Source of the DNA: Escherichia coli | GTDB lineage: Bacteria; Pseudomonadota; Gammaproteobacteria; Enterobacterales; Enterobacteriaceae | Length of the DNA stretch: 64,000 bases | Assembly (NCBI RefSeq): GCF_002854065.1 | Contig: NZ_CP024147.1 | Strand: one strand, 5' to 3' | Shown here: positions 13,642-64,000 of the stretch, in pieces | Position numbering within the stretch: position 1 is the first letter of the stretch | How the letters are laid out: every line of letters starts with the position of its first letter | The notes under the pieces: generated by a model | Seen by the model: only the letters and a program-made list of their open reading frames with translations | Database searches by the model: none | Told to the model about the DNA's origin: nothing | Program-made: the position numbers and the translations under genes

Positions 13642-13848
13642 AAGACTTTCTCCAGTGATGTTGAATCACATTTAAGCTACTAAAAATATTTTACAAAATT
13701 TCAAATTTAATTGAAAGCTATGGCGATATTGAAAAATTCATCAACAACTATGCTTAGTGTAGGCGCAACCTTCAACTGAACGGTTAAACATGCCACAATA
13801 CCCGTATTGAATGCTTAATTTTTCGCTAAATCAGGATATTAACTACCC

Positions 13849-16488
13849 ATGCTGGGTAAATATAAAGCCGTTCTCGCGCTGTTATTACTGATTATTCTTG
13901 TGCCGTTGACGCTGCTGATGACGCTCGGGCTGTGGGTTCCCACGCTGGCGGGCATCTGGCTACCGCTCGGGACACGTATTGCATTAGATGAAAGCCCACG
14001 CATTACGCGTAAAGGTTTAATCATTCCCGATCTCCGTTATCTGGTGGGAGATTGTCAGCTTGCGCATATCACCAACGCCAGCCTTTCACATCCCAGCCGC
14101 TGGTTATTGAACGTCGGCACGGTAGAACTTGATTCTGCTTGTCTGGCGAAATTGCCGCAGACGGAGCAATCGCCAGCTGCTCCAAAAACCCTCGCGCAAT
14201 GGCAGTCCATGCTGCCTAACACCTGGATCAATATTGATAAACTGATTTTTTCTCCCTGGCAGGAATGGCAGGGAAAACTCTCTCTCGCATTAACCTCCGA
14301 TATCCAGCAACTGCGTTATCAGGGCGAAAAAGTTAAATTTCAAGGCCAGCTGAAAGGGCAACAACTTACAGTCAGCGAACTGGATGTCGTCGCGTTTGAA
14401 AATCAGCCGCCGGTTAAACTGGTGGGGGAATTTACTATGCCGCTAGTGCCGGATGGACTTCCTGTAAGTGGTCATGCTACTGCGACGTTAAACTTGCCGC
14501 AGGAACCGTCACTGGTAGATGCCGAGCTGGACTGGCAGGAAAATAGCGGGCAATTGATTGTGCTGGCACGGGATAACGGCGATCCGTTGCTCGATTTGCC
14601 GTGGCAAATTACGCGTCAACAATTGACCGTAAGCGATGGTCGCTGGAGCTGGCCGTATGCAGATTTTCCTTTGAGTGGCCGACTGGGTGTCAAAGTCGAC
14701 AACTGGCAGGCAGGGCTTGAGAACGCTCTGGTCAGCGGACGACTGAGTGTGCTGACCCAGGGGCAAGCGGGTAAGGGCAACGCGGTGCTTAATTTTGGCC
14801 CAGGAAAATTAAGCATGGATAACAGCCAGCTGCCTCTGCAGCTGACCGGTGAAGCGAAACAGGCGGACCTCATTTTATATGCCCGTTTACCTGCGCAGGT
14901 AAGTGGAAGTCTGTCTGACCCAACGCTGACCTTTGAGCCAGGCGCGTTACTTCGTTCAAAGGGAAGAGTCATCGATTCGCTGGACATCGATGAAATCCGC
15001 TGGCCTTTAGCGGGTGTAAAAGTCACCCAACGTGGTGTTGACGGACGTTTGCAGGCCATTTTGCAGGCGCATGAAAATGAACTGGGCGATTTCGTGCTGC
15101 ATATGGATGGGCTGGCGAATGATTTTCTCCCTGACGCTGGCCGCTGGCAGTGGCGCTACTGGGGAAAAGGGAGTTTTACACCGATGAATGCCACCTGGGA
15201 TGTCGCAGGAAAAGGTGAGTGGCATGACAGCACGATTACGCTGACCGATCTCTCCACCGGTTTCGACCAGTTACAATACGGTACGATGACGGTAGAAAAG
15301 CCGCGATTAATTCTCGACAAGCCCGTCGTCTGGGTACGTGACGCACAGCATCCCTCCTTCAGCGGCACGCTGTCACTGGACGCCGGGCAAACGCTGTTCA
15401 CTGGCGGCAGTGTGTTACCGCCATCAACCTTAAAATTTAGCGTCGATGGGCGCGATCCGACGTATTTCCTCTTTAAAGGCGATTTACATGCTGGTGAGAT
15501 TGGCCCGGTTCGGGTAAATGGTCGCTGGGACGGTATTCGTCTGCGCGGTAATGCCTGGTGGCCTAAACAATCACTGACTGTATTCCAGCCGCTGGTGCCA
15601 CCCGACTGGAAGATGAACTTACGCGATGGTGAACTGTATGCTCAGGTTGCATTTTCTGCTGCGCCTGAACAAGGATTCCGCGCGGGAGGGCACGGCGTGT
15701 TGAAAGGCGGTAGTGCCTGGATGCCAGATAATCAGGTTAACGGTGTCGATTTTGTCCTGCCTTTCCGTTTTGCCGATGGAGCCTGGCATCTGGGGACTCG
15801 CGGCCCCGTTACGTTGCGAATTGCCGAAGTGATTAATCTGGTGACAGCGAAAAATATTACGGCTGATTTGCAAGGGCGTTATCCGTGGACTGAAGAAGAA
15901 CCATTGCTGTTGACTGATGTTAGCGTCGATGTGTTAGGCGGTAACGTGCTGATGAAACAATTACGTATGCCGCAACATGACCCGGCGCTGTTGCGGCTGA
16001 ATAATCTCTCATCCAGCGAACTGGTTAGCGCCGTCAATCCGAAACAATTTGCCATGTCCGGGGCATTTAGTGGTGCATTGCCGTTATGGCTGAACAATGA
16101 AAAATGGATTGTCAAAGAGGGCTGGTTGGCAAACGCGGGGCCGATGACGCTGCGTCTGGATAAAGACACTGCAGATGCGGTGGCCAAAGACAATATGACC
16201 GCTGGAACTGCCATCAACTGGTTGCGTTATATGGAAATCAGTCGCTCATCAACAAGGATTAATTTAGATAATCTCGGTGTGTTAACCATGCAGGCCAACA
16301 TTTCGGGCACCAGTCGCGTCGATGGTAAAAGCGGTACGGTAAACCTTAATTATCACCATGAAGAGAATATTTTTACGTTATGGCGCAGTTTACGCTTTGG
16401 CGATAATCTCCAGGTATGGCTGGAGCAGAATGCCCAGCTACCGGAAACTGGCTGCCCATCAGGAAAAGAGTGTGAGGAAAAACAATGA
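13849..16488 (+). CDS. ydbH: AsmA-like inner-membrane protein YdbH (TamB/YhdP paralogue)
   Basis: 879-aa ORF with N-terminal TM anchor and a long beta-rich periplasmic region. Confidence 0.88.
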   Translation: MLGKYKAVLALLLLIILVPLTLLMTLGLWVPTLAGIWLPLGTRIALDESPRITRKGLIIPDLRYLVGDCQLAHITNASLSHPSRWLLNVGTVELDSACLAKLPQTEQSPAAPKTLAQWQSMLPNTWINIDKLIFSPWQEWQGKLSLALTSDIQQLRYQGEKVKFQGQLKGQQLTVSELDVVAFENQPPVKLVGEFTMPLVPDGLPVSGHATATLNLPQEPSLVDAELDWQENSGQLIVLARDNGDPLLDLPWQITRQQLTVSDGRWSWPYADFPLSGRLGVKVDNWQAGLENALVSGRLSVLTQGQAGKGNAVLNFGPGKLSMDNSQLPLQLTGEAKQADLILYARLPAQVSGSLSDPTLTFEPGALLRSKGRVIDSLDIDEIRWPLAGVKVTQRGVDGRLQAILQAHENELGDFVLHMDGLANDFLPDAGRWQWRYWGKGSFTPMNATWDVAGKGEWHDSTITLTDLSTGFDQLQYGTMTVEKPRLILDKPVVWVRDAQHPSFSGTLSLDAGQTLFTGGSVLPPSTLKFSVDGRDPTYFLFKGDLHAGEIGPVRVNGRWDGIRLRGNAWWPKQSLTVFQPLVPPDWKMNLRDGELYAQVAFSAAPEQGFRAGGHGVLKGGSAWMPDNQVNGVDFVLPFRFADGAWHLGTRGPVTLRIAEVINLVTAKNITADLQGRYPWTEEEPLLLTDVSVDVLGGNVLMKQLRMPQHDPALLRLNNLSSSELVSAVNPKQFAMSGAFSGALPLWLNNEKWIVKEGWLANAGPMTLRLDKDTADAVAKDNMTAGTAINWLRYMEISRSSTRINLDNLGVLTMQANISGTSRVDGKSGTVNLNYHHEENIFTLWRSLRFGDNLQVWLEQNAQLPETGCPSGKECEEKQ

Positions 16489-17408: not shown

Positions 17409-20400
17409 ATGCAAAGGAAAAAATTATTGTCTGTTTGTGTTGCCATGGCGTTAAGTAGCCAGACATGGGCTGCGGATACTTCAATACCCGACTCAACCGA
17501 AAAAACACGTAAGTCCAGTAAGATAACATGTCCGGCAAATATTCATTCCCTGAGCAAAGAGCAGCTAGAAAATTTATCCGCGGAGTGCAGAGAAAATAAA
17601 GATAGTGCAGTTTTACCATGGGCAGCTGCAGGTCTTGCTGCAGTAGCTACGGGAATTGCTATATATACCTTAAGTGACGATGACAATCACCACCATAATA
17701 ACTCCCCAGTTCCGGATGATGGCGGTGATACGCCAGTTCCGCCAGACGACGGCGGTGATACGCCGGTTCCGCCAGATGACGGCGGTGATACGCCGGTTCC
17801 GCCAGATGACGGCGGTGATACGCCAGTTCCGCCAGATGACGGCGGTGATACGCCAGTTCCGCCAGATGACGGCGATGATACGCCGGTTCCGCCAGATGAC
17901 GGCGGTGATACGCCAGTTCCGCCAGATGACGGCGGTGATACGCCAGTTCCGCCAGATGACGGCGGTGATACGCCGGTTCCACCAGATGATGGCGGTGATA
18001 CGCCAGTTCCAGACGACGGCGGTGATACGCCTGTTCCGCCAGACGATGGTGGCGATACCCCGGTTAAACACGATCCTGTCGTCTATAAAAATGACGTAAC
18101 CTGGGATCAGGACGCGAAAACCGTCAAAATTCGCGAAACCACCTTTACCTACAGCCAAAATGCCGATGGGAGTTACACCTTAACCGCGCCTGATGGCCTG
18201 ACGACGATAGTCAAGGGCTGGACAGTCCATGACGACAGCAACACCGTCATCTTTGATGGCGTAAATACGGCAGGTGGCATCACCTGGAGCTACGACGATG
18301 ATGGGCTCATCCATATCACTAAAGAGGCCGGTGTCGTTGTTGATGGCACAACCGGAACTGCGATTGATTTTGGTAATGCGATCATCACCGATCAGGGCGG
18401 CAATACGGCGCTGAATGGCGGTACTGTCATGACGGTTGAGGGTGACAACATCACCCTCAACAACGACGGTAAAACGACCGCCATCGGCGAGGGTTCGGTC
18501 GTTGGTATCCTTACTGGTGACGATATCACTATCAATAACAACGGCGAGACGGAAGTTGACGGCGGTACCGCAGTAATCATCAATGGCGATAATGCTACGC
18601 TGAACACTGCGGGCGACTCGACCATCACCAATGGTGGTACGGGTAGCCTTATCAATGGCGATAATGCGCGGGTCGATAATCAAGGTACCATGAGCGTTGA
18701 CGGTGAGAATTCCACTGGCTCGAAAATTGTCGGTGACGGTGCCACCATCAAACAGGAAGGCGACTTATACGTAAGCGGTGGTGCGCACGGTATTGACGTT
18801 GACGGCAATGATACGTTCGTTAGCAACAAAGGTAATATTACGGTCATCGAAGATAACTCTATTGGCATGCTGCTTGATGGTGATGGCGTCAGCGTGATCA
18901 ACATGGGCGACCTCAATGTTGGTCAGGCCGCAGCGGGTGAAAATGCCATTGGCATTCAGATCGACGGTGATAATGCGACATTTGTTAACGTTGGTGATAT
19001 TTCCGCGACCAATGCCGGAACCGGTGTCAGCGTTGCTGGGGATAAAGCTAATATTTCACTCGCGGGTGGGTTAGACGTTGGGGATTTCTCCACCGGTCTT
19101 GATGTCTCTGGCAATAATAACAACATGACGCTGGCGACTTATGAGCTGAATGTGACAGGGCAAAAAGCGACGGGTGTTAATGTTTCGGGTGATGGCAATA
19201 CGATTGAAATCGCAGGCAGCATTCTGGTTGATAAAGATCAGAAAGCCGATAATGCGCAACCTTACTTCTTTAATCCCTCAACCGGCGTAAATATCAGCGG
19301 TAATAACAATGACGTCACGCTGGATGGTCAGTTAACCGTTGTTGCTGATAGCGAAACCACTACGCGTTCCTATGCAAGTTACGACGGTGCTCAGGAGCAC
19401 ATTGCGGGTATTGTTATTGCTGGCGATGACAATACCTTCACGCTTAATGGCGGTGTCCATTTTGTCGGTGAAAAAAATGTCATGGATGATGGCTCAAAAC
19501 CTGCCGCATCTCGTCGTGGTATCGGAGATACACCGCTTATGAGCGTTGATGGGCATTCCTCAGTCTACCTCAATGGTGAGTCAACCATCAGCGGTGAGTT
19601 CCCGCTGGGTTTCGAAAATCTCATTCAACTGAGTAATGGCGCGGAGCTGGAGATTGGCGCTGACGCAACGTTTGATATGAGTGATGTGGATTCTTTCACT
19701 TATTATTATCGTGTAGCGTTATCCACTATTAGTATTGATTATGGTGCGAAGGCGACAAACAACGGTGAAGTGGAACTGAAAAATATCGGTTTTGCGGCTG
19801 CCTGGAATAAAGATTCAACGGTAATCAATAACGGATCCATTGGCCTGGCGATGTACGATTTTGGTACCGACCCGGCACCAAAAGTCTTTGACGTTGAATA
19901 CGGTGGGATTGGCGTTAACAATGGTACCATGACCACCAAAATGATGAATCAGCACAGTGTGCTGAATTATCCGGCAGAGTGGAACTTGTCTGATGGTACC
20001 TCTTTCAATAACAAGGCATTAGGGCTGACAGGTATGCTTGCCAGCTACTCGTCATCCATTCTGAACGGCGAAACGGGCATTATTGATATGTATGGCCGTG
20101 GCAGTGTAGGGATGCTAGCCATCGATAAATCAACCGCGGATAACGAAGGGCAAATCACCCTGGATACGCTGTGGGTTGATGAAAATGATGAAACATCGCT
20201 GCGTAATAATGTTGCAAATAGCACGGCGAAAGATTTCGGTGTGGGAATGGCTTCAGGTACCGATGCCTATAATGGGGCATTAACTAAAGCCACGGCAACC
20301 AACCACGAGAATGGTGTGATTACTGTCTACAACGCCGGTGCGGGGATGGCGGCGTATGGGAATACTAATACGGTCATTAACCAGGGAACCATCAACCTGG

Positions 20401-39762: not shown

Positions 39763-40764
39763 TCAGAGTTTAGCGAATTTTTCGAGGGTGCGAATAAGCT
39801 GCGTGACGAAGCCATATTCGTTATCGTACCAGGCGACCGTTTTCACCAGTTGTAAATCGCCCACGGCGGTAATTTCCGTTTGCGTGGCATCAAACACTGA
39901 ACCGAAATGGCTGCCAATGATATCGGAAGAGACTATTTCTTCATCGGTATAACCAAATGACTCGTTATTGGTGGTTGCTTGTTTAAGTGCGTTATTCACC
40001 TCTTCGGCAGTCACTTTTTTTCCGAGAATGGACACCAGCTCAGTGACCGAACCTGTTTTCACCGGTACGCGTTGCGCATGACCTTTCAGTTTGCCGCTCA
40101 GTTCCGGTATCACCAGACCAATGGCTTTTGCCGCCCCCGTAGTGTGGGGAATGATATTTTCTGCCGCGGCGCGTGAAGCACGTAAATCTTTACCACGCGG
40201 GCCATCCACCAGTGACTGGGTGCCAGTATAGGCATGAATGGTCGTCATCGTGCCGACTTCTATCCCGAAACTGTCATGCAAGGCTTTGGCCATCGGCGCA
40301 AGACAGTTAGTAGTGCATGATGCCACGGAAACAATGGTGTCGTTGCCATCCAGAGTGTCGTCATTGACGTTATAAACGATAGTTTTCATTTCACCGGCAG
40401 GGGCGGAAATCAACACCTTCTTCGCGCCAGCATCAAGATGCGCCTGCGATTTCTCGGCGGAGGTATAAAAGCCAGTACATTCGACAATGATTTCTGTACC
40501 TTTCGCTTTCCACGGAATATTTTTAGCCTCTTTTTCGGCGTAAACCGCGATACTTTTCCCATTAACGATAAGTGAATCTTCCGTAAAATCAACGCTCCAG
40601 GGGAACGGTCCGTAGTTTGAATCATGTTTCAGCAGGTAGGCGAGAATTTTTGGAGAAGTGAGATCATTAATAGCGACAACGTCTATGTTGCTTTTGACTT
40701 CAAGTAATCGACGCAACACCAGTCGACCGATACGACCAAAACCGTTAATACCAACTTTACTCAT
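39763..40764 (-). CDS. gapC: Glyceraldehyde-3-phosphate dehydrogenase GapC, intact reading frame
   Basis: 333-aa uninterrupted ORF with NAD-binding NGFGRIGR and catalytic [10 protein letters not shown] motifs. Confidence 0.85.
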
Positions 40765-55091: not shown

Positions 55092-57053
55092 GTGACCGTA
55101 TCTTCTCATCGACTTGAACTGTTAAGCCCGGCACGCGATGCCGCCATTGCCCGCGAAGCTATTTTGCACGGTGCCGATGCTGTTTATATCGGCGGCCCTG
55201 GTTTTGGTGCCCGTCATAATGCCAGTAATAGCCTGAAAGATATTGCCGAGTTGGTGCCGTTTGCCCATCGTTATGGTGCAAAAATTTTCGTCACGCTTAA
55301 CACCATTTTGCATGATGATGAGCTGGAACCCGCGCAACGGCTGATTACTGACCTCTACCAGACCGGTGTCGATGCGCTGATTGTTCAGGATATGGGGATT
55401 CTGGAACTTGATATTCCGCCGATTGAACTGCACGCCAGTACGCAGTGCGACATTCGTACAGTAGAAAAAGCGAAGTTCCTCTCTGATGTTGGCTTCACGC
55501 AGATTGTGCTGGCGCGAGAGCTGAATCTTGATCAGATCCGCGCGATTCACCAGGCCACGGACGCGACCATTGAATTCTTTATTCATGGCGCACTGTGCGT
55601 GGCCTATTCGGGTCAGTGCTACATTTCTCATGCGCAAACAGGGCGTAGCGCCAACCGTGGCGATTGCTCACAGGCGTGCCGTTTGCCATACACATTGAAA
55701 GACGATCAGGGGCGGGTGGTTTCCTATGAAAAACATCTGCTGTCGATGAAAGATAACGATCAGACTGCCAACCTCGGCGCGCTGATTGATGCTGGCGTAC
55801 GCTCCTTCAAGATTGAAGGGCGTTACAAAGATATGAGCTACGTGAAGAATATCACCGCCCATTATCGCCAGATGCTGGATGCCATTATTGAAGAACGTGG
55901 TGATCTGACGCGCGCTTCATCAGGTCGTACTGAACATTTCTTTGTTCCATCGACGGAAAAGACTTTCCATCGTGGTAGCACAGATTATTTTGTGAATGCC
56001 CGTAAAGGCGATATTGGCGCGTTCGATTCGCCGAAATTTATCGGCCTGCCGGTGGGTGAAGTATTGAAAGTGGCGAAAGATCATCTCGATGTTGCCGTTA
56101 CCGATCCACTGGCAAATGGCGATGGCCTGAACGTGTTGATTAAACGTGAAGTCGTCGGTTTTCGTGCCAATACGGTCGAGAAAACCGGAGAAAATCAGTA
56201 CCGCGTCTGGCCCAATGAAATGCCAGCAGATTTGCACAAAATTCGCCCGCATCACCCACTAAACCGTAATCTTGATCATAACTGGCAGCAGGCACTGACA
56301 AAAACCTCCAGCGAACGTCGGGTGGCGGTAGACATTGAACTGGGCGGTTGGCAGGAACAATTGATTCTGACCCTCACCAGTGAAGAGGGGGTCAGCATCA
56401 CGCATACGCTGGATGGGCAGTTCGACGAAGCCAATAACGCCGAAAAAGCAATGAACAATCTGAAGGATGGTCTGGCAAAACTGGGGCAAACCATCTATTA
56501 CGCCCGCGATGTGCAAATTAATTTGCCGGGGGCACTGTTTGTACCAAACAGTCTGTTAAACCAGTTCCGCCGTGAAGCTGCTGACATGCTGGATGCTGCG
56601 CGTCTTGCCAGTTACCAGCGCGGCAGCCGTAAACCGGTTGCTGATCCTGCGCCGGTTTATCCGCAAACGCATCTGAGTTTCCTCGCGAACGTTTACAACC
56701 AGAAAGCGCGTGAATTTTATCATCGCTATGGTGTGCAGCTGATTGACGCGGCGTATGAGGCACATGAAGAGAAGGGCGAAGTCCCGGTGATGATCACCAA
56801 GCATTGTCTGCGCTTTGCCTTTAATTTGTGCCCGAAACAGGCGAAAGGCCATATCAAAAGCTGGAAGGCTACGCCAATGCAACTGGTTAACGGCGATGAA
56901 GTATTAACGCTAAAGTTTGATTGCCGCCCATGCGAGATGCACGTTATTGGCAAAATCAAAAATCACATACTGAAAATGCCGTTACCGGGAAGCGTAGTGG
57001 CATCCGTAAGTCCGGATGAGCTGCTGAAAACATTGCCGAAGCGAAAAGGGTAA
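55092..57053 (+). CDS. ydcP: Peptidase U32-family protein YdcP (RlhA, needed for 23S rRNA 5-hydroxycytidine)
   Basis: 653 aa if started at the in-frame GTG at 55092 (MTVSSHRLELLSPARD...); U32 collagenase-like fold. The ORF track begins at an upstream GTG (55050). Confidence 0.82.
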   Translation: MTVSSHRLELLSPARDAAIAREAILHGADAVYIGGPGFGARHNASNSLKDIAELVPFAHRYGAKIFVTLNTILHDDELEPAQRLITDLYQTGVDALIVQDMGILELDIPPIELHASTQCDIRTVEKAKFLSDVGFTQIVLARELNLDQIRAIHQATDATIEFFIHGALCVAYSGQCYISHAQTGRSANRGDCSQACRLPYTLKDDQGRVVSYEKHLLSMKDNDQTANLGALIDAGVRSFKIEGRYKDMSYVKNITAHYRQMLDAIIEERGDLTRASSGRTEHFFVPSTEKTFHRGSTDYFVNARKGDIGAFDSPKFIGLPVGEVLKVAKDHLDVAVTDPLANGDGLNVLIKREVVGFRANTVEKTGENQYRVWPNEMPADLHKIRPHHPLNRNLDHNWQQALTKTSSERRVAVDIELGGWQEQLILTLTSEEGVSITHTLDGQFDEANNAEKAMNNLKDGLAKLGQTIYYARDVQINLPGALFVPNSLLNQFRREAADMLDAARLASYQRGSRKPVADPAPVYPQTHLSFLANVYNQKAREFYHRYGVQLIDAAYEAHEEKGEVPVMITKHCLRFAFNLCPKQAKGHIKSWKATPMQLVNGDEVLTLKFDCRPCEMHVIGKIKNHILKMPLPGSVVASVSPDELLKTLPKRKG

Positions 57054-57103
57054 AACGCCAGTTTTCTGGTTACTCACAACTTATTGAATCTGCATGATAT
57101 TGC

Positions 57104-57139
57104 CTGCCGGGTAAGGCGTTACGCCGCATCCGGCATCAA
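57104..57139. repeat. REP element
   Basis: GCCTGCCGGGTAAGGCGTTACGCCGCATCCGGCA palindromic unit between ydcP and yncJ. Confidence 0.7.
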
Positions 57140-57144
57140 ACGAC

Positions 57145-57375
57145 TCAACGTTGTCCCGCTTCTGGTTTGCGCGATTTTTGCCAGTAAAAATGCTCGCGCA
57201 AACCTTCCGCCGACTCTTCCGCCACAGCACGCAATTCATCGCTGTCCGCTTCATGACGCAGCTGATGATCCACATTCTTTACCCACACAAATTCATGTCC
57301 TTTGTGCCCTGCCATGAGTTGTCCTGAGAACAGCGCACACGTTAATAAGACAACCGATAACGCCTTCGTAAACAT
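57145..57375 (-). CDS. yncJ: Small secreted protein YncJ (DUF2554)
   Basis: 76-aa ORF with signal peptide MFTKALSVVLLTCALFSGQLMA. Confidence 0.82.
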   Translation of the reverse strand: MFTKALSVVLLTCALFSGQLMAGHKGHEFVWVKNVDHQLRHEADSDELRAVAEESAEGLREHFYWQKSRKPEAGQR

Positions 57376-57546
57376 CCTGCCACCTTTTTCTTACCTTTTG
57401 CCGCTATGATGCCGATCGTTTCTTGAGGTTATTATTCAGTTTTGCAAATTAGCGCAAAGAAATTCTGGAATCTTCCTTCCTGATTTTGCATTGCATTCTG
57501 CCGTTGCGGCGATTTAGTGCTATTTTCGAGCAAATTACACACGGAG

Positions 57547-57564
57547 GTAAACACTAATGTTTAC
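57547..57564. promoter_or_regulatory. Inverted repeat GTAAACA-ctaa-TGTTTAC in the hicA promoter region (candidate HicB operator)
   Basis: Perfect 7-bp arms directly upstream of a TATACT -10-like hexamer and the hicA start. Function is inferred, not demonstrated. Confidence 0.45.
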
Positions 57565-57596
57565 TTTGTTGATATACTCAGCGGCAGGGAGGCGAT

Positions 57597-57773
57597 GTGA
57601 AACAAAGCGAGTTCAGACGTTGGCTCGAATCTCAGGGCGTCGATGTAGCGAATGGCAGCAACCATTTGAAACTCAGGTTTCATGGGATGCGCAGTGTCAT
57701 GCCGCGTCACCCCTGCGATGAGATTAAAGAACCATTGCGTAAAGCAATCCTGAAACAACTCGGTTTGAGTTAA
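57597..57773 (+). CDS. hicA: HicA mRNA-interferase toxin (type II toxin-antitoxin)
   Basis: 58-codon ORF with GTG start, MKQSEFRRWLESQGVDVANGSNHLKLRFHGMRSVMPRHP...; below the ORF-track cutoff. Confidence 0.85.
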   Translation: MKQSEFRRWLESQGVDVANGSNHLKLRFHGMRSVMPRHPCDEIKEPLRKAILKQLGLS

Positions 57774-57797
57774 TCGCCAATTAAAAAGGTTAATGAC

Positions 57798-58235
<438 letters not shown>

Positions 58236-58313
58236 TTACAGTTAACGAAAAGTTGTCATTTTTAACAACTGATATAGACTGCCGAATCATCTGCACATAA
58301 TTACGATTCGATA

Positions 58314-59720
58314 ATGAAAAAATACCAGCAGCTTGCAGAACAATTACGCGAGCAGATTGCGTCGGGTATCTGGCAACCCGGCGATCGTTTGCCTTCGTTG
58401 CGTGACCAGGTGGCGCTTTCTGGCATGAGCTTTATGACTGTCAGCCATGCCTATCAGTTGCTCGAAAGTCAGGGATATATTATCGCACGACCGCAGTCGG
58501 GTTATTACGTTGCGCCACAGGCAATAAAAATGCCGAAAGTGCCAGTCATTCCAGTCACTCGAGATGAAGCAGTCGATATCAACACTTATATTTTTGATAT
58601 GTTGCAGGCCAGTCGCGATCCGTCGGTCGTTCCGTTTGCCTCGGCCTTTCCCGACCCGCGACTTTTCCCCCTCCAACAACTAAACCGCTCGCTGGCGCAG
58701 GTAAGCAAAACCGCCACAGCGATGAGTGTGATTGAAAACTTACCGCCAGGAAACGCAGAACTGCGTCAGGCTATTGCTCGTCGCTATGCCTTACAGGGCA
58801 TCACCATTTCTCCTGATGAAATTGTCATCACTGCCGGGGCGTTAGAAGCATTAAACCTCAGTTTGCAAGCGGTAACTGAACCGGGCGATTGGGTGATAGT
58901 AGAGAATCCTTGTTTCTATGGCGCGTTGCAGGCGCTGGAACGGCTACGGCTGAAAGCGTTATCGGTAGCGACGGATGTTAAAGAAGGGATCGATCTTCAG
59001 GCGCTGGAACTGGCGTTGCAGGAGTATCCGGTGAAAGCGTGCTGGCTGATGACTAATAGCCAGAATCCACTCGGATTTACCTTAACGCCGCAAAAAAAAG
59101 CACAACTGGTGGCGTTGCTCAATCAGTACAACGTAACGCTGATTGAAGATGACGTTTACAGCGAACTTTATTTTGGACGGGAAAAACCGCTGCCTGCGAA
59201 AGCGTGGGATCGCCACGATGGCGTTTTGCATTGCTCTTCGTTTTCGAAATGTCTGGTGCCTGGTTTTCGTATTGGTTGGGTCGCCGCCGGAAAACATGCA
59301 CGTAAAATTCAACGCTTGCAGCTGATGAGTACGCTTTCCACCAGCTCACCGATGCAGCTTGCGCTGGTGGATTACCTTTCCACGCGCCGATATGACGCCC
59401 ATCTTCGTCGCCTGCGTCGCCAGCTTGCGGAACGTAAACAACGTGCCTGGCAGGCACTGCTGCGTTATCTGCCTGCGGAAGTGAAAATTCATCATAATGA
59501 CAGCGGTTATTTTCTCTGGCTGGAGCTCCCCGAGCCGTTAGATGCCGGCGAATTGAGCCTGGCGGGACTGACGCATCATATCAGTATTGCGCCGGGTAAA
59601 ATGTTTTCTACCGGTGAAAACTGGTCACGTTTTTTTCGTTTTAATACCGCGTGGCAGTGGGGAGAACGTGAAGAACAGGCGGTAAAACAATTAGGCAAAC
59701 TTATTCAAGAACGGCTGTAA
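58314..59720 (+). CDS. ydcR: MocR/GntR-family regulator with aminotransferase-like (PLP) domain
   Basis: 468-aa ORF with N-terminal GntR HTH and C-terminal class I aminotransferase fold. Confidence 0.88.
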   Translation: MKKYQQLAEQLREQIASGIWQPGDRLPSLRDQVALSGMSFMTVSHAYQLLESQGYIIARPQSGYYVAPQAIKMPKVPVIPVTRDEAVDINTYIFDMLQASRDPSVVPFASAFPDPRLFPLQQLNRSLAQVSKTATAMSVIENLPPGNAELRQAIARRYALQGITISPDEIVITAGALEALNLSLQAVTEPGDWVIVENPCFYGALQALERLRLKALSVATDVKEGIDLQALELALQEYPVKACWLMTNSQNPLGFTLTPQKKAQLVALLNQYNVTLIEDDVYSELYFGREKPLPAKAWDRHDGVLHCSSFSKCLVPGFRIGWVAAGKHARKIQRLQLMSTLSTSSPMQLALVDYLSTRRYDAHLRRLRRQLAERKQRAWQALLRYLPAEVKIHHNDSGYFLWLELPEPLDAGELSLAGLTHHISIAPGKMFSTGENWSRFFRFNTAWQWGEREEQAVKQLGKLIQERL

Positions 59721-59964
59721 TAGCGTTTAATTTAATTCCTCTTAGATTGGGTAATATGAATTTCGAATAGCAGTCATATTTCCTAACTCCTTGTCTATAC
59801 TCCAGAAGATAACCTTACAGAAGGCATAATGCGCGGTAGCTCACAACCTGATTAAATTTTCTCAGGGGCGAAGGTGTGCCTGCAAGCCGCCGTCTATGGT
59901 TAAACAAGGAGATATTTTTACGGCACGGCGGCTGAACAATTAATTACGACAGGAGTAAGACCTT

Positions 59965-61110
59965 ATGAGCAAGACATTTGCCCGCAGCAGCCTGTGTGCG
60001 CTCAGCATGACAATAATGACCGCTCACGCCGCCGAACCGCCTACCAATTTAGATAAACCGGAAGGGCGACTGGATATTATCGCTTGGCCGGGATATATCG
60101 AACGCGGACAAACTGATAAACAATACGACTGGGTAACGCAATTCGAAAAAGAGACAGGCTGCGCGGTGAATGTTAAAACCGCCGCGACTTCCGATGAAAT
60201 GGTCAGTCTGATGACCAAAGGGGGTTACGATCTGGTTACGGCATCCGGCGATGCCTCGCTGCGTTTGATTATGGGTAAACGCGTGCAGCCGATTAATACC
60301 GCATTGATTCCCAACTGGAAAACGCTCGATCCGCGCGTGGTTAAAGGCGACTGGTTTAACGTGGGCGGCAAAGTTTACGGCACACCTTACCAATGGGGGC
60401 CGAACCTGCTGATGTACAACACTAAAACCTTCCCGACGCCGCCGGATAGCTGGCAAGTGGTTTTTATTGAGCAAAATCTGCCGGACGGCAAGAGCAATAA
60501 AGGCCGCGTTCAGGCTTATGATGGCCCTATCTATATTGCGGACGCTGCGTTGTTCGTTAAAGCCACTCAGCCGCAGTTGGGCATCAGCGATCCGTATCAA
60601 CTCACCGAAGAACAGTACCAGGCGGTGCTGAAAGTGCTGCGCGCTCAACACAGTTTGATCCATCGCTACTGGCATGACACTACCGTGCAAATGAGCGATT
60701 TCAAAAACGAGGGTGTGGTTGCTTCCAGTGCCTGGCCCTATCAGGCCAACGCCCTGAAAGCCGAAGGCCAGCCTGTCGCTACCGTATTTCCGAAAGAGGG
60801 CGTTACCGGTTGGGCTGACACTACCATGCTACATAGCGAAGCGAAACATCCGGTTTGCGCCTACAAATGGATGAACTGGTCATTAACGCCAAAAGTGCAG
60901 GGCGATGTGGCGGCCTGGTTTGGCTCGTTACCAGTCGTGCCGGAAGGGTGTAAAGCCAGTCCGTTATTAGGCGAAAAAGGTTGTGAAACCAACGGTTTTA
61001 ACTATTTCGACAAAATCGCCTTCTGGAAAACGCCTATAGCAGAAGGGGGCAAGTTTGTTCCCTACAGTCGCTGGACGCAGGATTACATTGCCATTATGGG
61101 CGGTCGCTAA
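59965..61110 (+). CDS. ydcS: Periplasmic polyamine-type ABC substrate-binding protein YdcS
   Basis: 381-aa ORF with signal peptide; PotD/PotF-like. Confidence 0.88.
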   Translation: MSKTFARSSLCALSMTIMTAHAAEPPTNLDKPEGRLDIIAWPGYIERGQTDKQYDWVTQFEKETGCAVNVKTAATSDEMVSLMTKGGYDLVTASGDASLRLIMGKRVQPINTALIPNWKTLDPRVVKGDWFNVGGKVYGTPYQWGPNLLMYNTKTFPTPPDSWQVVFIEQNLPDGKSNKGRVQAYDGPIYIADAALFVKATQPQLGISDPYQLTEEQYQAVLKVLRAQHSLIHRYWHDTTVQMSDFKNEGVVASSAWPYQANALKAEGQPVATVFPKEGVTGWADTTMLHSEAKHPVCAYKWMNWSLTPKVQGDVAAWFGSLPVVPEGCKASPLLGEKGCETNGFNYFDKIAFWKTPIAEGGKFVPYSRWTQDYIAIMGGR

Positions 61111-61127
61111 CTTCGCTGGGGTGCTTT

Positions 61128-62141
61128 ATGACGTACGCAGTGGAGTTTGACAACGTCTCGCGGTTGTACGGCGACGTGCGCGCAGCAGATGGCGTCAGTA
61201 TTGCGATAAAAGATGGTGAGTTCTTCTCTATGCTGGGGCCGTCCGGCTCCGGCAAAACCACCTGCCTGCGCCTGATTGCTGGCTTCGAACAGCTTTCCGG
61301 CGGGGCTATCTCTATCTTTGGTAAACCCGCCAGCAATCTGCCACCGTGGGAGCGGGACGTGAATACTGTCTTTCAGGACTACGCGCTATTTCCGCATATG
61401 TCGATTCTTGACAATGTCGCCTATGGGCTGATGGTCAAAGGCGTGAATAAAAAGCAGCGGCACGCAATGGCGCAAGAGGCGCTGGAGAAAGTGGCGTTGG
61501 GGTTTGTACAGCAACGTAAACCGTCACAACTTTCTGGTGGTCAGCGCCAGCGGGTTGCTATCGCCAGAGCATTGGTGAATGAACCGCGCGTATTGCTGTT
61601 GGATGAACCGCTCGGCGCACTGGATCTCAAATTGCGTGAGCAGATGCAGCTGGAACTGAAAAAACTGCAACAGTCTCTCGGTATCACTTTTATCTTCGTT
61701 ACCCACGATCAGGGCGAAGCGTTATCGATGTCCGATCGTGTGGCGGTTTTCAATAATGGACGCATTGAGCAGGTCGATTCCCCGCGCGATCTCTATATGC
61801 GCCCGCGCACGCCGTTTGTTGCCGGGTTCGTTGGTACATCGAATGTTTTTGATGGACTGATGGCAGAGAAACTTTGTGGCATGACGGGAAGCTTCGCCCT
61901 GCGACCGGAACATATCCGCCTCAACACTCCTGGTGAACTGCAGGCCAATGGCACGATCCAGGCGGTGCAATATCAGGGCGCGGCAACTCGTTTTGAACTG
62001 AAATTGAACGGCGGTGAAAAACTGCTTGTGAGTCAGGCTAATATGACAGGCGAAGAACTGCCTGCCACGCTCACGCCCGGACAACAGGTGATGGTTTCCT
62101 GGTCGCGTGATGTGATGGTGCCGCTGGTCGAGGAGAGGTGA
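61128..62141 (+). CDS. ydcT: ABC transporter ATP-binding protein YdcT
   Basis: 337-aa ORF with Walker A GPSGSGKTT, ABC signature LSGGQRQR and Walker B LLLDEP. Confidence 0.9.
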   Translation: MTYAVEFDNVSRLYGDVRAADGVSIAIKDGEFFSMLGPSGSGKTTCLRLIAGFEQLSGGAISIFGKPASNLPPWERDVNTVFQDYALFPHMSILDNVAYGLMVKGVNKKQRHAMAQEALEKVALGFVQQRKPSQLSGGQRQRVAIARALVNEPRVLLLDEPLGALDLKLREQMQLELKKLQQSLGITFIFVTHDQGEALSMSDRVAVFNNGRIEQVDSPRDLYMRPRTPFVAGFVGTSNVFDGLMAEKLCGMTGSFALRPEHIRLNTPGELQANGTIQAVQYQGAATRFELKLNGGEKLLVSQANMTGEELPATLTPGQQVMVSWSRDVMVPLVEER

Positions 62142-63083
62142 ATGGCGATGAATGTATTGCAATCACCTTCACGTCCAGGTCTGGGTAAGGTGTCCGGTTT
62201 CTTCTGGCGGAATCCGGGACTGGGGCTGTTTTTGCTGCTGCTTGGCCCGCTAATGTGGTTTGGCATTGTCTATTTCGGCTCGCTGCTAACACTGCTATGG
62301 CAGGGCTTTTATACCTTTGACGATTTCACCATGTCGGTAACGCCGGAACTGACGTTGGCGAATATCCGTGCGCTGTTTAATCCGGCGAATTACGACATCA
62401 TTCTCCGCACGCTGACTATGGCTGTGGCAGTCACTATCGCCAGCGCCATTCTGGCTTTTCCAATGGCGTGGTATATGGCGCGCTATACCAGTGGAAAAAT
62501 GAAAGCGTTTTTTTATATCGCGGTAATGTTGCCGATGTGGGCGAGCTACATTGTTAAAGCCTATGCCTGGACGTTATTGCTGGCAAAAGATGGCGTGGCT
62601 CAGTGGTTTTTACAACATCTGGGGCTGGAACCACTGCTGACTGCGTTCCTTACATTACCTGCGGTGGGCGGCAATACGCTGTCAACTTCCGGGCTGGGGC
62701 GCTTTCTGGTGTTTCTCTATATCTGGCTGCCGTTCATGATCCTGCCCGTGCAGGCGGCGCTTGAGCGTTTGCCGCCGTCATTGTTGCAGGCGTCAGCTGA
62801 TCTCGGCGCACGTCCACGACAAACCTTTCGCTATGTGGTGCTGCCGCTGGCGATCCCGGGTATTGCCGCTGGCTCTATCTTTACCTTCTCACTCACACTG
62901 GGTGATTTTATCGTCCCGCAACTGGTTGGCCCTCCAGGATATTTTATCGGCAATATGGTTTATTCCCAGCAGGGGGCGATTGGCAATATGCCGATGGCGG
63001 CGGCATTCACCCTGGTGCCGATTGTTCTCATCGCACTGTACCTGGCGTTCGTGAAACGTCTGGGAGCGTTCGATGCACTCTGA
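62142..63083 (+). CDS. ydcU: ABC transporter permease YdcU
   Basis: 313-aa multi-TM ORF directly after ydcT. Confidence 0.88.
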
Positions 63084-63867
63084 ACGCGCACCGTTTTTCC
63101 TCAAACTGGCGGCCTGGGGCGGCGTAGTTTTCCTACATTTTCCTATCCTGATTATCGCCGCCTATGCGTTTAACACTGAAGATGCGGCGTTTAGTTTTCC
63201 ACCGCAAGGCCTGACGCTGCGCTGGTTTAGCGTGGCAGCACAGCGTAGTGATATTCTTGATGCCGTGACACTGTCACTTAAAGTGGCGGCGCTGGCGACA
63301 TTAATCGCGCTGGTGTTAGGGACGCTTGCAGCTGCCGCGCTGTGGCGACGAGACTTTTTCGGCAAAAACGCCATTTCGCTGTTACTGCTGCTGCCCATTG
63401 CGCTGCCGGGCATTGTCACTGGTCTGGCGCTATTAACCGCTTTTAAAACCATCAATCTGGAGCCGGGATTTTTCACCATCGTGGTCGGCCATGCGACTTT
63501 TTGCGTAGTGGTGGTGTTTAACAATGTCATCGCCCGTTTTCGCCGCACCTCGTGGAGTCTGGTTGAGGCGTCAATGGATCTTGGGGCCAATGGCTGGCAA
63601 ACCTTCCGCTACGTAGTGTTGCCGAATCTCAGTTCGGCGTTACTGGCAGGAGGAATGCTGGCGTTTGCCTTGTCGTTCGATGAAATCATCGTTACGACCT
63701 TTACGGCAGGTCATGAACGAACGTTACCGTTGTGGTTGCTCAATCAGCTTGGGCGACCGCGTGATGTACCGGTAACTAACGTGGTGGCACTGCTGGTTAT
63801 GTTGGTAACAACCTTGCCGATCCTGGGGGCCTGGTGGCTAACCCGCGAAGGCGACAATGGTCAATAA
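63073..63867 (+). CDS. ydcV: ABC transporter permease YdcV
   Basis: 264-aa multi-TM ORF overlapping the ydcU stop. Confidence 0.88.
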
Positions 63868-63888
63868 CCACTGATACAGGAATATGCT

Positions 63889-64000
63889 ATGCAACATAAG
63901 TTACTGATTAACGGAGAACTGGTTAGCGGCGAAGGGGAAAAACAGCCTGTCTATAATCCGGCAACGGGGGACGTTTTACTGGAGATTGCCGAGGCATCCG
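63889..64000 (+). CDS. patD: Gamma-aminobutyraldehyde dehydrogenase PatD (YdcW), 5-prime end only; continues beyond the window
   Basis: ATG after an AGGA ribosome-binding site; translation MQHKLLINGELVSGEGEKQPVYNPATGDVLLEIAEAS. Confidence 0.8.
   Translation, partial: MQHKLLINGELVSGEGEKQPVYNPATGDVLLEIAEAS

Follow-up and report, generated by a model that had tools for sequence, protein, structure and literature searches.

The ydcSTUV-patD locus of Escherichia coli: an ABC importer of the PotD/PotF lineage linked to an aminobutyraldehyde dehydrogenase gene and its probable role in amine uptake and oxidation

The ydcSTUV-patD locus of Escherichia coli probably encodes a module in which a substrate is imported by the ABC transporter YdcSTUV and subsequently oxidized through PatD, a general logic in which we have good confidence. 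As for the cargo, a short diamine, namely putrescine or cadaverine, or 1,3-diaminopropane in species containing the spermidine dehydrogenase SpdH, is slightly favoured, and this assignment is tentative and held at somewhat less than even confidence. The operon is already known, since it is a core E. coli locus, annotated in RefSeq and named as an operon in published papers. New here are the linkage of patD after ydcV across two bacterial orders, a larger cluster in Serratia and Pseudomonas, replacements in the binding pocket of YdcS, and evidence that YdcR is probably not the operon regulator.

Organization and conservation of the locus

The window, i.e., the whole 64,000-nucleotide stretch of E. 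coli DNA that was analysed, ends within another allele of the catalogued K-12 operon b1440-b1444 (Table 1), with RefSeq gene names identical to those of K-12 ydcSTUV-patD, and the name "ydcSTUV-patD operon" is in published use (PMC11052181). The first-pass annotation had described a complete ABC importer with overlapping ydcU and ydcV, followed 21 bp later by patD, and the reading frames agree with this description. Read from the sequence, 17 nt separate ydcS from ydcT, the ATG of ydcU directly abuts the TGA stop codon of ydcT with a gap of 0, the start of ydcV overlaps the end of ydcU by 11 nt, and the ATG of patD at 63889 follows the TAA of ydcV, ending at 63867, after a gap of 21 nt. From these spacings, and with no terminator-like site found in any of the junctions from ydcS to patD, including the last one, we infer that ydcSTUV and patD are co-transcribed.

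Nearly every complete E. coli genome (5405 of 5426) carries the locus. The allele in the window is diverged by about 1% in nucleotides from most E. coli, and identity over positions 59700-64000 reaches at least 99% in only 2 of 5414 genomes; one genome is 100% identical over this interval and supplies the full-length patD, of which the window holds only 37 codons (MQHKLLINGELVSGEGEKQPVYNPATGDVLLEIAEAS). Among the species-level genomes of Enterobacterales and Pseudomonas with enough flanking DNA, patD lies directly 3' of ydcV in 67 of 68. Given this linkage and the prevalence in E. coli, the ydcSTUV-patD arrangement is beyond chance.

Table 1. Coordinates of the genes and candidate regulatory elements at the ydcSTUV-patD locus (positions in the window).
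Feature	Position	Strand	Length	Description
ydcR	58314..59720	+		MocR-type regulator, neighbour gene; Pfam GntR HTH and Aminotran_1_2
Candidate sigma-S-type extended -10 element TGTCTATACT	59792..59801	+		Pattern match and conservation
Conserved upstream/leader block AATGCGCGG..TCACAACCTGATTAAATTT	59829..59859	+		Conservation in 16 genera
Conserved block with 9-bp inverted repeat	59885..59933	+		AGCCGCCGT / ACGGCGGCT around AAGGAGATATTTTT
ydcS	59965..61110	+	381 aa	Periplasmic substrate-binding protein; signal peptide residues 1-22 (59965-60030)
ydcT	61128..62141	+	337 aa	ABC ATPase with C-terminal TOBE_2 domain
ydcU	62142..63083	+	313 aa	Permease subunit, PotB/PotH-like
ydcV	63073..63867	+	264 aa	Permease subunit, PotC/PotI-like
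patD (ydcW), 5' end	63889..64000	+		Cytoplasmic NAD-dependent gamma-aminobutyraldehyde dehydrogenase; gene cut by the window end

The YdcSTUV transporter

Domain content and motifs identify YdcSTUV as a complete binding-protein-dependent (type I) ABC importer of the PotD/PotF lineage. YdcS carries an N-terminal signal peptide (MSKTFARSSLCALSMTIMTAHA/AE), contains only the Pfam domains SBP_bac_1/8/6, and matches the equivalog NF041888 over residues 3-381 with 813.1 bits (cutoff 725). Moreover, PDB entry 6NLP, named a solute-binding family protein by its depositors, corresponds to YdcS residues 23-381 with one substitution and begins at residue 23. YdcT combines the Pfam domains ABC_tran and TOBE_2 with a Walker A motif (GPSGSGKT at 37), an ABC signature (LSGGQ at 135) and a Walker B motif (VLLLDE at 155). 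Both permeases are BPD_transp_1 proteins, with five hydrophobic segments in YdcU and six in YdcV according to a crude scan, and with EAA-type loops that read QASADLGA in the translation of YdcU and EASMDLGA at 165 in YdcV.

Among characterised systems, PotABCD and PotFGHI supply the closest relatives of each of the four proteins. By its profile scores, YdcSTUV is a relative of these systems and not an equivalog, since the equivalog cutoffs are not reached: YdcS scores 61.9 bits against PotF (cutoff 636) and 46.1 bits against PotD (cutoff 582), YdcT has PotA as its best NCBIfam match with 357 bits (cutoff 482), YdcU scores 120 bits against PotB (cutoff 348) and 115 bits, also below cutoff, against PotH, and YdcV scores 146 bits against PotC (cutoff 326). 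With a family profile, PotD, SpuE, and PotF are the top-ranking solved structures apart from that of YdcS (E ~1e-29).

PatD and the proposed uptake and oxidation pathway

Full-length PatD, taken from the identical genome, matches the aminobutyraldehyde dehydrogenase family TIGR03374 with 1035.6 bits (cutoff 909.3) and PDB entries 1WNB/1WND with 1061 bits. In vitro, putrescine and cadaverine are converted by PatA and PatD (PMC6265302). In the proposed pathway, YdcS would be exported via its Sec signal peptide to the periplasm, where it would capture a small cationic aliphatic amine, and the YdcT ATPase dimer would power the passage of this amine through the YdcU/YdcV channel into the cell. There, the carbon skeleton would be converted to an omega-aminoaldehyde, which PatD would oxidize with NAD+ to an omega-amino acid, i.e., GABA from C4 and 5-aminovalerate from C5 substrates. 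An imported diamine would become a substrate of PatD through the unlinked transaminase PatA, a step that, like the identity of the cargo, we infer. The earlier suggestion of an amine or aminoaldehyde uptake-and-oxidation unit is, thus, supported by the importer motifs, by the characterised PatD, and by the linkage across two orders.

Growth of E. coli on putrescine requires PuuP, which speaks against an efficient role of YdcSTUV in putrescine uptake. "Putrescine importer" and "putative putrescine transporter" are the labels used for YdcSTUV in papers that report neither uptake nor binding measurements (PMC8674398, PMC10936423), and the transporter classification database is one of the sources that one of these papers cites.

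The binding pocket of YdcS

The key ligand-binding residues are reportedly W37, S85, E185, W244, D247, and D278 in PotF and E171, W255, and D257 in PotD, in work attributed to Vassylyev in 1998 and Kashiwagi in 1996. The pocket of YdcS was mapped onto these proteins with MAFFT, and profile alignments with PotD and SpuE gave a consistent result; the mapping comes from alignments at 23-25% identity to PotF and PotD and not from coordinates. Four of the six crucial PotF residues are kept in YdcS (W41, S94, W257, and D285), and the wider set W41, Y44, S94, W257, W283, and D285 corresponds to PotF W37, Y40, S85, W244, F276, and D278. The acidic residues E185 and D247 of PotF are replaced by Y190 and Q260, and PotF D39 and Y314 by G43 and S321, while PotD E36, D168, and E171 correspond to G43, G187, and, again, Y190. 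The Y190 and Q260 replacements are invariant in YdcS orthologues of five other genera. Moreover, 7 residues are inserted after Y44 in YdcS, four of its cysteines are invariant across the family, and the net charge of the mature protein is -1.8, versus -5.7 for PotF and -9.2 for PotD.

The retained amine-binding core may support a diamine as the cargo, together with the additional invariant residue D96, which may leave YdcS with a pair of acidic residues able to clamp such a molecule. Against a diamine count the replaced equivalents of PotF E185 and D247 and the lack of a transaminase gene in the annotated flanks. The caution in the first-pass annotation that the substrate is not settled by sequence is, thus, borne out, as YdcS lacks two of the six putrescine-binding residues of PotF.

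Larger clusters in Serratia and Pseudomonas

In Serratia and some Pseudomonas, the transporter belongs to a larger cluster containing genes for a LysR regulator and a second aminobutyraldehyde dehydrogenase, ydcSTUV, patD, and a gene for SpdH. The transporter is orthologous to that of E. coli (YdcS is 73-85% identical) and patD occupies the same position, whereas the LysR gene replaces the neighbouring ydcR and an extra dehydrogenase gene lies upstream; the E. coli locus corresponds to the transporter-patD core only. Among loci with enough room downstream of patD, an SpdH homologue follows patD in every Serratia locus and in 5 of 28 LysR-type loci of the Pseudomonas/Rahnella group, i.e., in 10 of 33 LysR-type loci overall, versus none of the 21 YdcR-type loci, E. 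coli included. The SpdH of the cluster matches spermidine dehydrogenase (PDB 7D9F) with E = 1e-245, the products of this enzyme being delta-1-pyrroline and 1,3-diaminopropane (PMC12564564).

Every SpdH carries the twin-arginine motif ITRRDFLNG, a Tat export signal, at its N-terminus, and in Serratia the next gene encodes a cytochrome c bearing a Sec signal peptide. Both dehydrogenases flanking ydcSTUV are without signal peptides. Therefore, if SpdH is periplasmic, as assumed from its Tat signal, its aldehyde product would arise in the periplasm. In a survey of 80 loci, one or two aminoaldehyde dehydrogenase genes always adjoin the cluster; no transaminase gene was seen in the annotated flanks, the survey having been run without a PatA query.

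Alternative cargoes

These clusters lend support to the aminoaldehyde option of the earlier interpretation, according to which YdcS would bind 4-aminobutanal/delta-1-pyrroline, 3-aminopropanal, or 5-aminopentanal/piperideine. Such aldehydes would be formed by extracytoplasmic amine oxidases or dehydrogenases, and PatD would oxidize the imported cargo directly, without a transaminase. We regard this as a serious alternative that is nonetheless rather unlikely. It agrees with the continuation of the cluster by a Tat-signal SpdH and, in Serratia, by an exported cytochrome c, with a cluster that has dehydrogenases and, in its annotated flanks, no transaminase, and with a YdcS that lacks the acid clamp of the E185/D247 type, retains the aromatic box and D285, and is far less acidic than PotF or PotD. 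However, SpdH linkage is confined to fewer than a third of the LysR-type loci and is absent from the YdcR-type loci, and we know of no aminoaldehyde-binding transport protein described so far. Moreover, delta-1-pyrroline might cross membranes unaided, D96 could provide the second diamine clamp, 1,3-diaminopropane, the other product of SpdH, is an equally logical cargo, and the mapped pocket depends on alignments of low identity. Should an aminoaldehyde prove to be the cargo, which we doubt on balance, YdcSTUV would be the first dedicated importer of omega-aminoaldehydes or cyclic imines (delta-1-pyrroline/4-aminobutanal, 3-aminopropanal) and the missing membrane step between periplasmic, host-derived or plant-derived polyamine oxidation and cytoplasmic PatD. 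The aldehydes would then come from the Tat-signal SpdH in Serratia and Pseudomonas and from extracellular amine oxidases elsewhere, and E. coli would have kept, from a larger spermidine-oxidation cluster, the core that serves scavenging.

Another explanation, which we consider improbable, is that the cargo does not enter the PatD route but is some other small molecule (e.g., GABA, beta-alanine, a monoamine, or a phosphonate), and that the transporter and patD are linked through common regulation in stationary phase or under nitrogen limitation and not through a common pathway. Detectable relatives do include GABA-binding proteins (the 6DGV sensor scaffold, 4EQ7/4EUO) and components of 2-aminoethylphosphonate transporters, and the YdcS pocket differs in its make-up from those of PotF and PotD and varies at its positions in the wider YdcS-like family (30-60% identity). 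However, relatives that bind such ligands score far lower than PotD and PotF, the import of GABA beside a GABA-making enzyme would be illogical, and the nearly constant linkage to patD, often with a second aminobutyraldehyde dehydrogenase gene opposite, is hard to explain non-metabolically.

Published roles of YdcS and YdcV

Two further roles have been published, and neither finds support in the sequence. YdcS and YdcV have been proposed to form an inner-membrane route for double-stranded plasmid DNA in natural transformation on agar plates (Sun 2016), which we consider very improbable. Transformation is reduced 6.7-fold by deletion of ydcS and 9.5-fold by deletion of ydcV, both RpoS-dependent genes (PMC6135910), and the effect was observed again in 2025 (PMC12455589). 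However, the solute-binding fold and the two permeases, with five to six hydrophobic segments each, are those of an ordinary small-molecule type I importer, Pfam found only SBP, ABC, and BPD_transp_1 domains and no DNA-binding or competence-channel domain in YdcSTUV, mature YdcS is slightly acidic (pI 6.27), and the conserved partner gene encodes an aldehyde dehydrogenase. Moreover, deletion of ydcT, encoding the ATPase, has only a minor effect, and the effect of ydcS and ydcV is lost in an hns mutant (PMC6135910, PMC12455589). The phenotype fits better with an indirect effect, e.g., via polyamine or envelope physiology.

It is just as improbable that YdcS is, possibly as a second activity, a periplasmic synthase of short-chain poly-3-hydroxybutyrate (cPHB) of the alpha/beta-hydrolase type (Dai and Reusch 2008), since, despite the reported activity and the approximately 30% lower cPHB content of ydcS mutant outer membranes (PMC3709699), YdcS has solute-binding-protein domains and no alpha/beta-hydrolase Pfam domain, lacks a G-x-S/C-x-G lipase or PHA-synthase box in its entire sequence, and was deposited as a solute-binding protein in 6NLP. 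Its invariant cysteines suggest disulfides rather than a catalytic thiol.

Comparison with known systems

Like YdcSTUV, the putrescine transporter PotFGHI and the spermidine-preferential PotABCD comprise a substrate-binding protein, an ATPase with a regulatory C-terminal domain, and two BPD_transp_1 permeases, and both the aromatic box and an Asp at the position of PotF D278 and PotD D257 are retained in YdcS. In contrast to ydcSTUV-patD, the pot operons have no gene for a catabolic enzyme attached. The spu operon of Pseudomonas aeruginosa encodes the transaminase SpuC and glutamylation enzymes and not an aldehyde dehydrogenase, and the binding residues of SpuD and SpuE are described as PotF-like. 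Similarly to ydcSTUV-patD, spuABCDEFGH unites a PotF-type ABC importer with polyamine catabolic enzymes (table in PMC9397018). SpuE is, moreover, among the closest solved relatives of YdcS. In E. coli, the periplasmic amine oxidase TynA is followed by the cytoplasmic aldehyde dehydrogenase FeaB, a topology of periplasmic oxidation and cytoplasmic aldehyde oxidation identical to that envisaged for an aminoaldehyde importer coupled to PatD, but without a transporter, because phenylacetaldehyde is uncharged and hydrophobic.

Regulation and the upstream region

YdcR is probably neither the regulator of the operon nor part of the unit. In a published reconstruction of its regulon, YdcR is paired with cydAB-like oxidase genes and ylaC, and not with ydcS (PMC5320631 supplement), and the ydcR-ydcS fragment served as the negative control in electrophoretic mobility shift assays in which YdcR bound its own promoter fragment (PMC9321722). 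Moreover, the position of ydcR is occupied by the LysR regulator gene in Serratia and Pseudomonas. On these three grounds, YdcR is unlikely to act as a local MocR/GabR-type regulator of the operon.

The first-pass annotation started at 59965 and left out the promoter and leader region (59721-59964). No sigma-70 consensus promoter was found in the ydcR-ydcS intergenic region. The candidate -10 element TGTCTATACT, which we take to fit the sigma-S consensus, would place the start of transcription near 59807, giving a leader of about 158 nt. Two occurrences of the pattern TGNCTATACT were counted in the window, versus 0.22 expected, and TTGTCTATA[C/A]T is conserved in 11 of 16 Enterobacteriaceae genera. 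Deletion of rpoS reduces the expression of ydcS and ydcT (PMC13339887), in line with a sigma-S-dependent transcription unit.

Downstream of the candidate promoter, TCACA, AAA, and adjoining columns of the 59829..59859 block are invariant across 16 genera, and this block may be a regulator-binding site. Within the 59885..59933 block, GGAGATATTTTTACGGCACGGC is almost invariant in the 16 genera; the 16-genus alignment contains no covariation indicative of RNA structure in this block, and the ydcS leader folds no better than shuffled sequences (z = 0.21). CsrA pull-down targets are reported to include ydcT (PMC11052181). The 59885..59933 block might hold a CsrA site; GGA motifs occur in it and in the Shine-Dalgarno sequence of ydcS, where AGGAG lies 9 nt ahead of the ATG.

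Organization and conservation of the ydcSTUV-patD locus

The genes ydcS, ydcT, ydcU, ydcV and patD, named the ydcSTUV-patD operon in the literature (PMC11052181), constitute the known b1440–b1444 operon of E. coli, which is already catalogued, annotated and core. Bases 59700–64000 are E. coli chromosome and share 100% identity with strain CUWW06 by genome comparison. Among the 5426 complete genomes of the species, 5405 carry at least 80% of this stretch. The RefSeq gene names in the identical genome are ydcR, ydcS, ydcT, ydcU, ydcV and patD. Reading of the junctions gives a gap of 17 nt between ydcS and ydcT, a TGA stop of ydcT that directly abuts the ATG of ydcU, an overlap of 11 nt between ydcU and ydcV, and 21 nt between ydcV and patD. 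The window holds only 37 codons of patD; the full-length gene, taken from the identical genome, reaches 1035.6 bits with TIGR03374, the equivalog for aminobutyraldehyde dehydrogenase (cutoff 909.3), and its product matches the solved YdcW/PatD structures 1WNB and 1WND. Every element of the first-pass annotation was thus correct, namely the ORFs, the ydcU/ydcV overlap, the 21-nt ydcV–patD gap and the identity of patD. Since the operon is core and already annotated, this reading, though correct, adds nothing to the catalogue.

Coordinates of the operon genes, the candidate promoter element and the conserved YdcS cysteine codons
Feature	Position	Source or location
Candidate sigma-S extended -10 element TGTCTATACT	59792-59801	ydcR-ydcS spacer
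ydcS	59965-61110	ORF table
YdcS C66 codon	60160-60162	
YdcS C298 codon	60856-60858	
YdcS C329 codon	60949-60951	
YdcS C340 codon	60982-60984	
ydcT	61128-62141	ORF table
ydcU	62142-63083	ORF table
ydcV	63073-63867	ORF table
patD ATG	63889	junction read from sequence

Together, ydcSTUV encode every component of a type I ABC importer. YdcS carries a Sec-type signal peptide with cleavage after AHA (residue 22), and its crystal structure (6NLP), regarded in one paper as showing the closed state (PMC11930149), begins at residue 23; a domain search finds solute-binding-protein domains only, and the protein passes the curated YdcS equivalog (813 bits, cutoff 725). YdcT contains Walker A, signature and Walker B motifs together with a TOBE_2 domain, while the permeases YdcU and YdcV each have a BPD_transp_1 domain and an EAA-type loop. 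The earlier claim of a complete importer is borne out by the signal peptide and domains of YdcS, the ATPase motifs and the two permeases. Among curated families, the polyamine systems PotABCD and PotFGHI come closest to each of the four proteins, but every score lies below the family cutoff. YdcSTUV works like these systems and yet is an equivalog of neither: its scores miss these cutoffs, and of six key residues in PotF two are lacking.

Among matching E. coli genomes, identity over bases 59700–64000 reaches at least 99% in only 2 of 5414 and lies between 95 and 99% in 5398, so the lineage of the window is sparsely sampled. Records labelled as plasmids account for five matches. Just past the window end, the identical genome (L001, 11824–12633) carries a gene for a CatB-related O-acetyltransferase after patD, which is not known from that position in K-12 and may be accessory.

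Genomic neighborhood and the extended SpdH cluster

YdcS is unusually conserved, its orthologues showing 84–94% identity in other enterobacterial genera and 73–78% in Pseudomonas. The survey of its neighborhood took one genome per species, used a 9-sequence alignment as query and tblastn to find the neighbors, and kept 80 loci; more distant YdcS relatives (P0121, P0131 and P0138; 35–60% identity) lie on short contigs with uninformative neighborhoods. In 67 of the 68 surveyed loci with enough flank, patD is located directly downstream of ydcV. The only exception is L083 (Pseudomonas sp. CFBP 13711), where an opposite-strand Oxidored_FMN gene stands in its place (13153–15842). Upstream of ydcS, 23 loci, from Enterobacteriaceae, contain ydcR, and 44 contain a LysR regulator with a second aminobutyraldehyde dehydrogenase paralogue, this type being carried by Serratia, Rahnella, Hafnia, Lonsdalea and most Pseudomonas; eight loci have neither arrangement.

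Right after patD, 10 of the 33 LysR-type loci with room encode a flavoprotein of 620–636 aa similar to the spermidine dehydrogenase SpdH of P. aeruginosa (PDB 7D9F; E = 1e-245), followed in Serratia by a cytochrome c that bears a Sec signal peptide. The extended cluster runs LysR, dehydrogenase, ydcSTUV, patD and spdH. Every SpdH copy bears the twin-arginine motif ITRRDFLNG at its N-terminus, and both dehydrogenases flanking the importer have no signal peptide. From this Tat signal we infer a periplasmic SpdH, so that an aminoaldehyde would be formed outside the inner membrane and oxidized inside, with the importer encoded between both. No description of this cluster or of the remodeling of the YdcS pocket was found in the papers searched, of which only one, on a metagenome, names both ydcS and spdH.

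Several loci depart from these arrangements. In the YdcR-type locus of Cronobacter sakazakii (L006), an SpdH homologue whose Tat motif is intact starts some 4 kb downstream of patD (~18300–19146). A second tblastn segment lies in another frame, suggesting a frameshift or pseudogene, and the gene runs past the locus end. In Citrobacter amalonaticus (L091, 11145–14000), ydcS, ydcV and patD show 89–96% identity, the ydcT match is 69% and ydcU is undetected at >60% coverage, which may reflect frameshifts or assembly errors. In two Pseudomonas loci, L067 (16197–17891) and L070, an APC-family amino-acid/amine permease gene (AA_permease_2) between patD and spdH provides a second transporter, unrelated to YdcSTUV. 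Finally, Pseudomonas nitroreducens (L002, 17524–18681) has, immediately behind its SpdH and SnoaL genes, an ORF resembling a chemoreceptor, with Cache/PDC sensor domains (dCache_1 at 44.7 bits, just under the Pfam cutoff of 45 bits), a hint that the cluster substrate may also be a chemoattractant.

The YdcS binding pocket

The pocket was mapped by aligning YdcS with PotF and PotD of E. coli in MAFFT, and independent profile alignments to the PotD and SpuE structures gave the same positions; this mapping rests on alignment at 23–25% identity rather than on the 6NLP coordinates. YdcS keeps W41, Y44, S94, W257, W283 and D285 at the positions of PotF W37, Y40, S85, W244, F276 and D278, whereas PotF D39, E185, D247 and Y314 are replaced by G43, Y190, Q260 and S321, and PotD E36, D168 and E171 by G43, G187 and Y190. 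An extra acid, D96, aligns to PotF S87 and PotD Y85. The YdcS orthologues of five other genera show no variation at these residues, and the net charge of mature YdcS is -1.8, versus -5.7 for PotF and -9.2 for PotD. Judging from the residues kept, replaced and gained, and from the charge, the predicted pocket is still an amine pocket, but differs from the putrescine geometry of PotF. Moreover, C66, C298, C329 and C340 are invariant in a 30-member family alignment reaching down to 28% identity (C298 in 29 of 30). PotD and PotF have no cysteines at these positions, and the four cysteines probably form two disulfides that mark the YdcS subfamily.

Proposed transport mechanism and candidate substrates

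YdcSTUV is an orphan transporter with three conflicting labels: putrescine importer, DNA-uptake channel and cPHB synthase. A sigma-S-dependent uptake-and-oxidation module, in which import precedes PatD, is the best-supported account, and we consider its general logic likely. YdcS would capture a small cationic amine, YdcUV and YdcT would pump it into the cell, and its carbon skeleton would pass through PatD as an omega-aminoaldehyde.

As to the cargo, a short diamine (putrescine, cadaverine or 1,3-diaminopropane) is tentatively put forward because of the Pot family membership and the two pocket acids. This requires the unlinked transaminase PatA, which together with PatD converts putrescine into GABA and cadaverine into 5-aminovalerate (PMC6265302). 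E. coli patA puuA mutants are unable to form the aldehyde from putrescine. Two papers name YdcSTUV as an importer or putative transporter of putrescine and report neither uptake nor binding measurements (PMC8674398, PMC10936423). Direct import of an aminoaldehyde or cyclic imine is somewhat less likely; in its favor, dehydrogenases always adjoin the transporter, a transaminase was not seen in the annotated flanks and the topology suits the SpdH-containing clusters. Were the cargo an aminoaldehyde or pyrroline, ABC importers would gain a new class of substrate, and it would become clear how carbon and nitrogen are recovered by bacteria from polyamines oxidized outside the cell. An unrelated small molecule is improbable as cargo. 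The near-invariant link to aminobutyraldehyde dehydrogenase, the Tat-signal SpdH cluster and the remodeled pocket narrow the choice to a few ligands, which can be tested with purified YdcS in a day, a cheap route to de-orphanization.

A dsDNA channel has been proposed from plate transformation falling 6.7-fold in a ydcS and 9.5-fold in a ydcV mutant (PMC6135910, PMC12455589), and a periplasmic cPHB synthase role has been reported for YdcS (PMC3709699), but each is highly improbable, being unsupported by domain content, motifs or charge and having a dehydrogenase as the conserved partner. A clinical study counts the genes among those for efflux pumps but offers no functional evidence (PMC7531082).

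Candidate promoter region and the role of YdcR

The ydcR–ydcS spacer of 244 nt yields no predicted sigma-70-like promoter, and the gene junctions of ydcSTUV-patD contain no terminator-like sites. Internal terminators were rejected, since the 14 terminator-like matches (7.2 ± 3.3 expected) all lie within coding sequence and have weak stems. The spacer contains the candidate element TGTCTATACT, which matches the sigma-S extended -10 consensus and predicts a transcription start near 59807. Its pattern occurs twice in the window versus 0.22 expected, and TTGTCTATA[C/A]T is conserved in 11 of 16 Enterobacteriaceae genera. A second exact match to TGNCTATACT, on the minus strand at 40225–40234, falls within the coding sequence of gap (gapC) and is probably due to chance; gapC, a pseudogene in K-12, is annotated in the strain of the window as an intact gene for type I GAPDH. 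A 2026 study reports that expression of ydcS and ydcT falls upon rpoS deletion (PMC13339887).

Two blocks upstream of ydcS (59829–59859 and 59885–59933) are nearly invariant between genera. A riboswitch-like or structured leader was rejected, as the ~158 nt before ydcS fold no better than shuffles (z = 0.21); four pairs predicted in the 16-genus alignment show zero compensatory changes, and Rfam gives no match over 59700–64000. DNA or protein-binding sites are a more likely explanation of the conserved blocks. The sole Rfam match in 57000–64000 is a sub-threshold hit to naRNA4, a REP-derived nucleoid-associated RNA (57105–57141; 28.8 bits, gathering score 59.5); located just downstream of rlhA, it probably represents a REP element.

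YdcR (ydcR, 58314–59720) was rejected as regulator of ydcSTUV-patD on published EMSA and regulon data and on synteny. The protein binds PLP and its own promoter fragment in an EMSA in which the ydcR–ydcS fragment is the negative control (PMC9321722), and a comparative regulon study assigns it cydAB-like oxidase genes and ylaC as targets (PMC5320631 supplement). In agreement with that prediction, cytochrome bd-type oxidase genes and a DUF2474 gene are divergent from ydcR in Cronobacter (L006, 4436–6992) and Klebsiella aerogenes (L011, 3285–5817). On this evidence, YdcR is probably a bystander at this operon. In the window, the position divergent from ydcR holds hicAB and yncJ instead of oxidase genes, and the main target of YdcR may have been lost in E. 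coli. In the annotation of the identical genome, the type II toxin–antitoxin pair hicA/hicB (57597–57773 and 57819–58235) is located between yncJ (57145–57375, minus strand) and ydcR.
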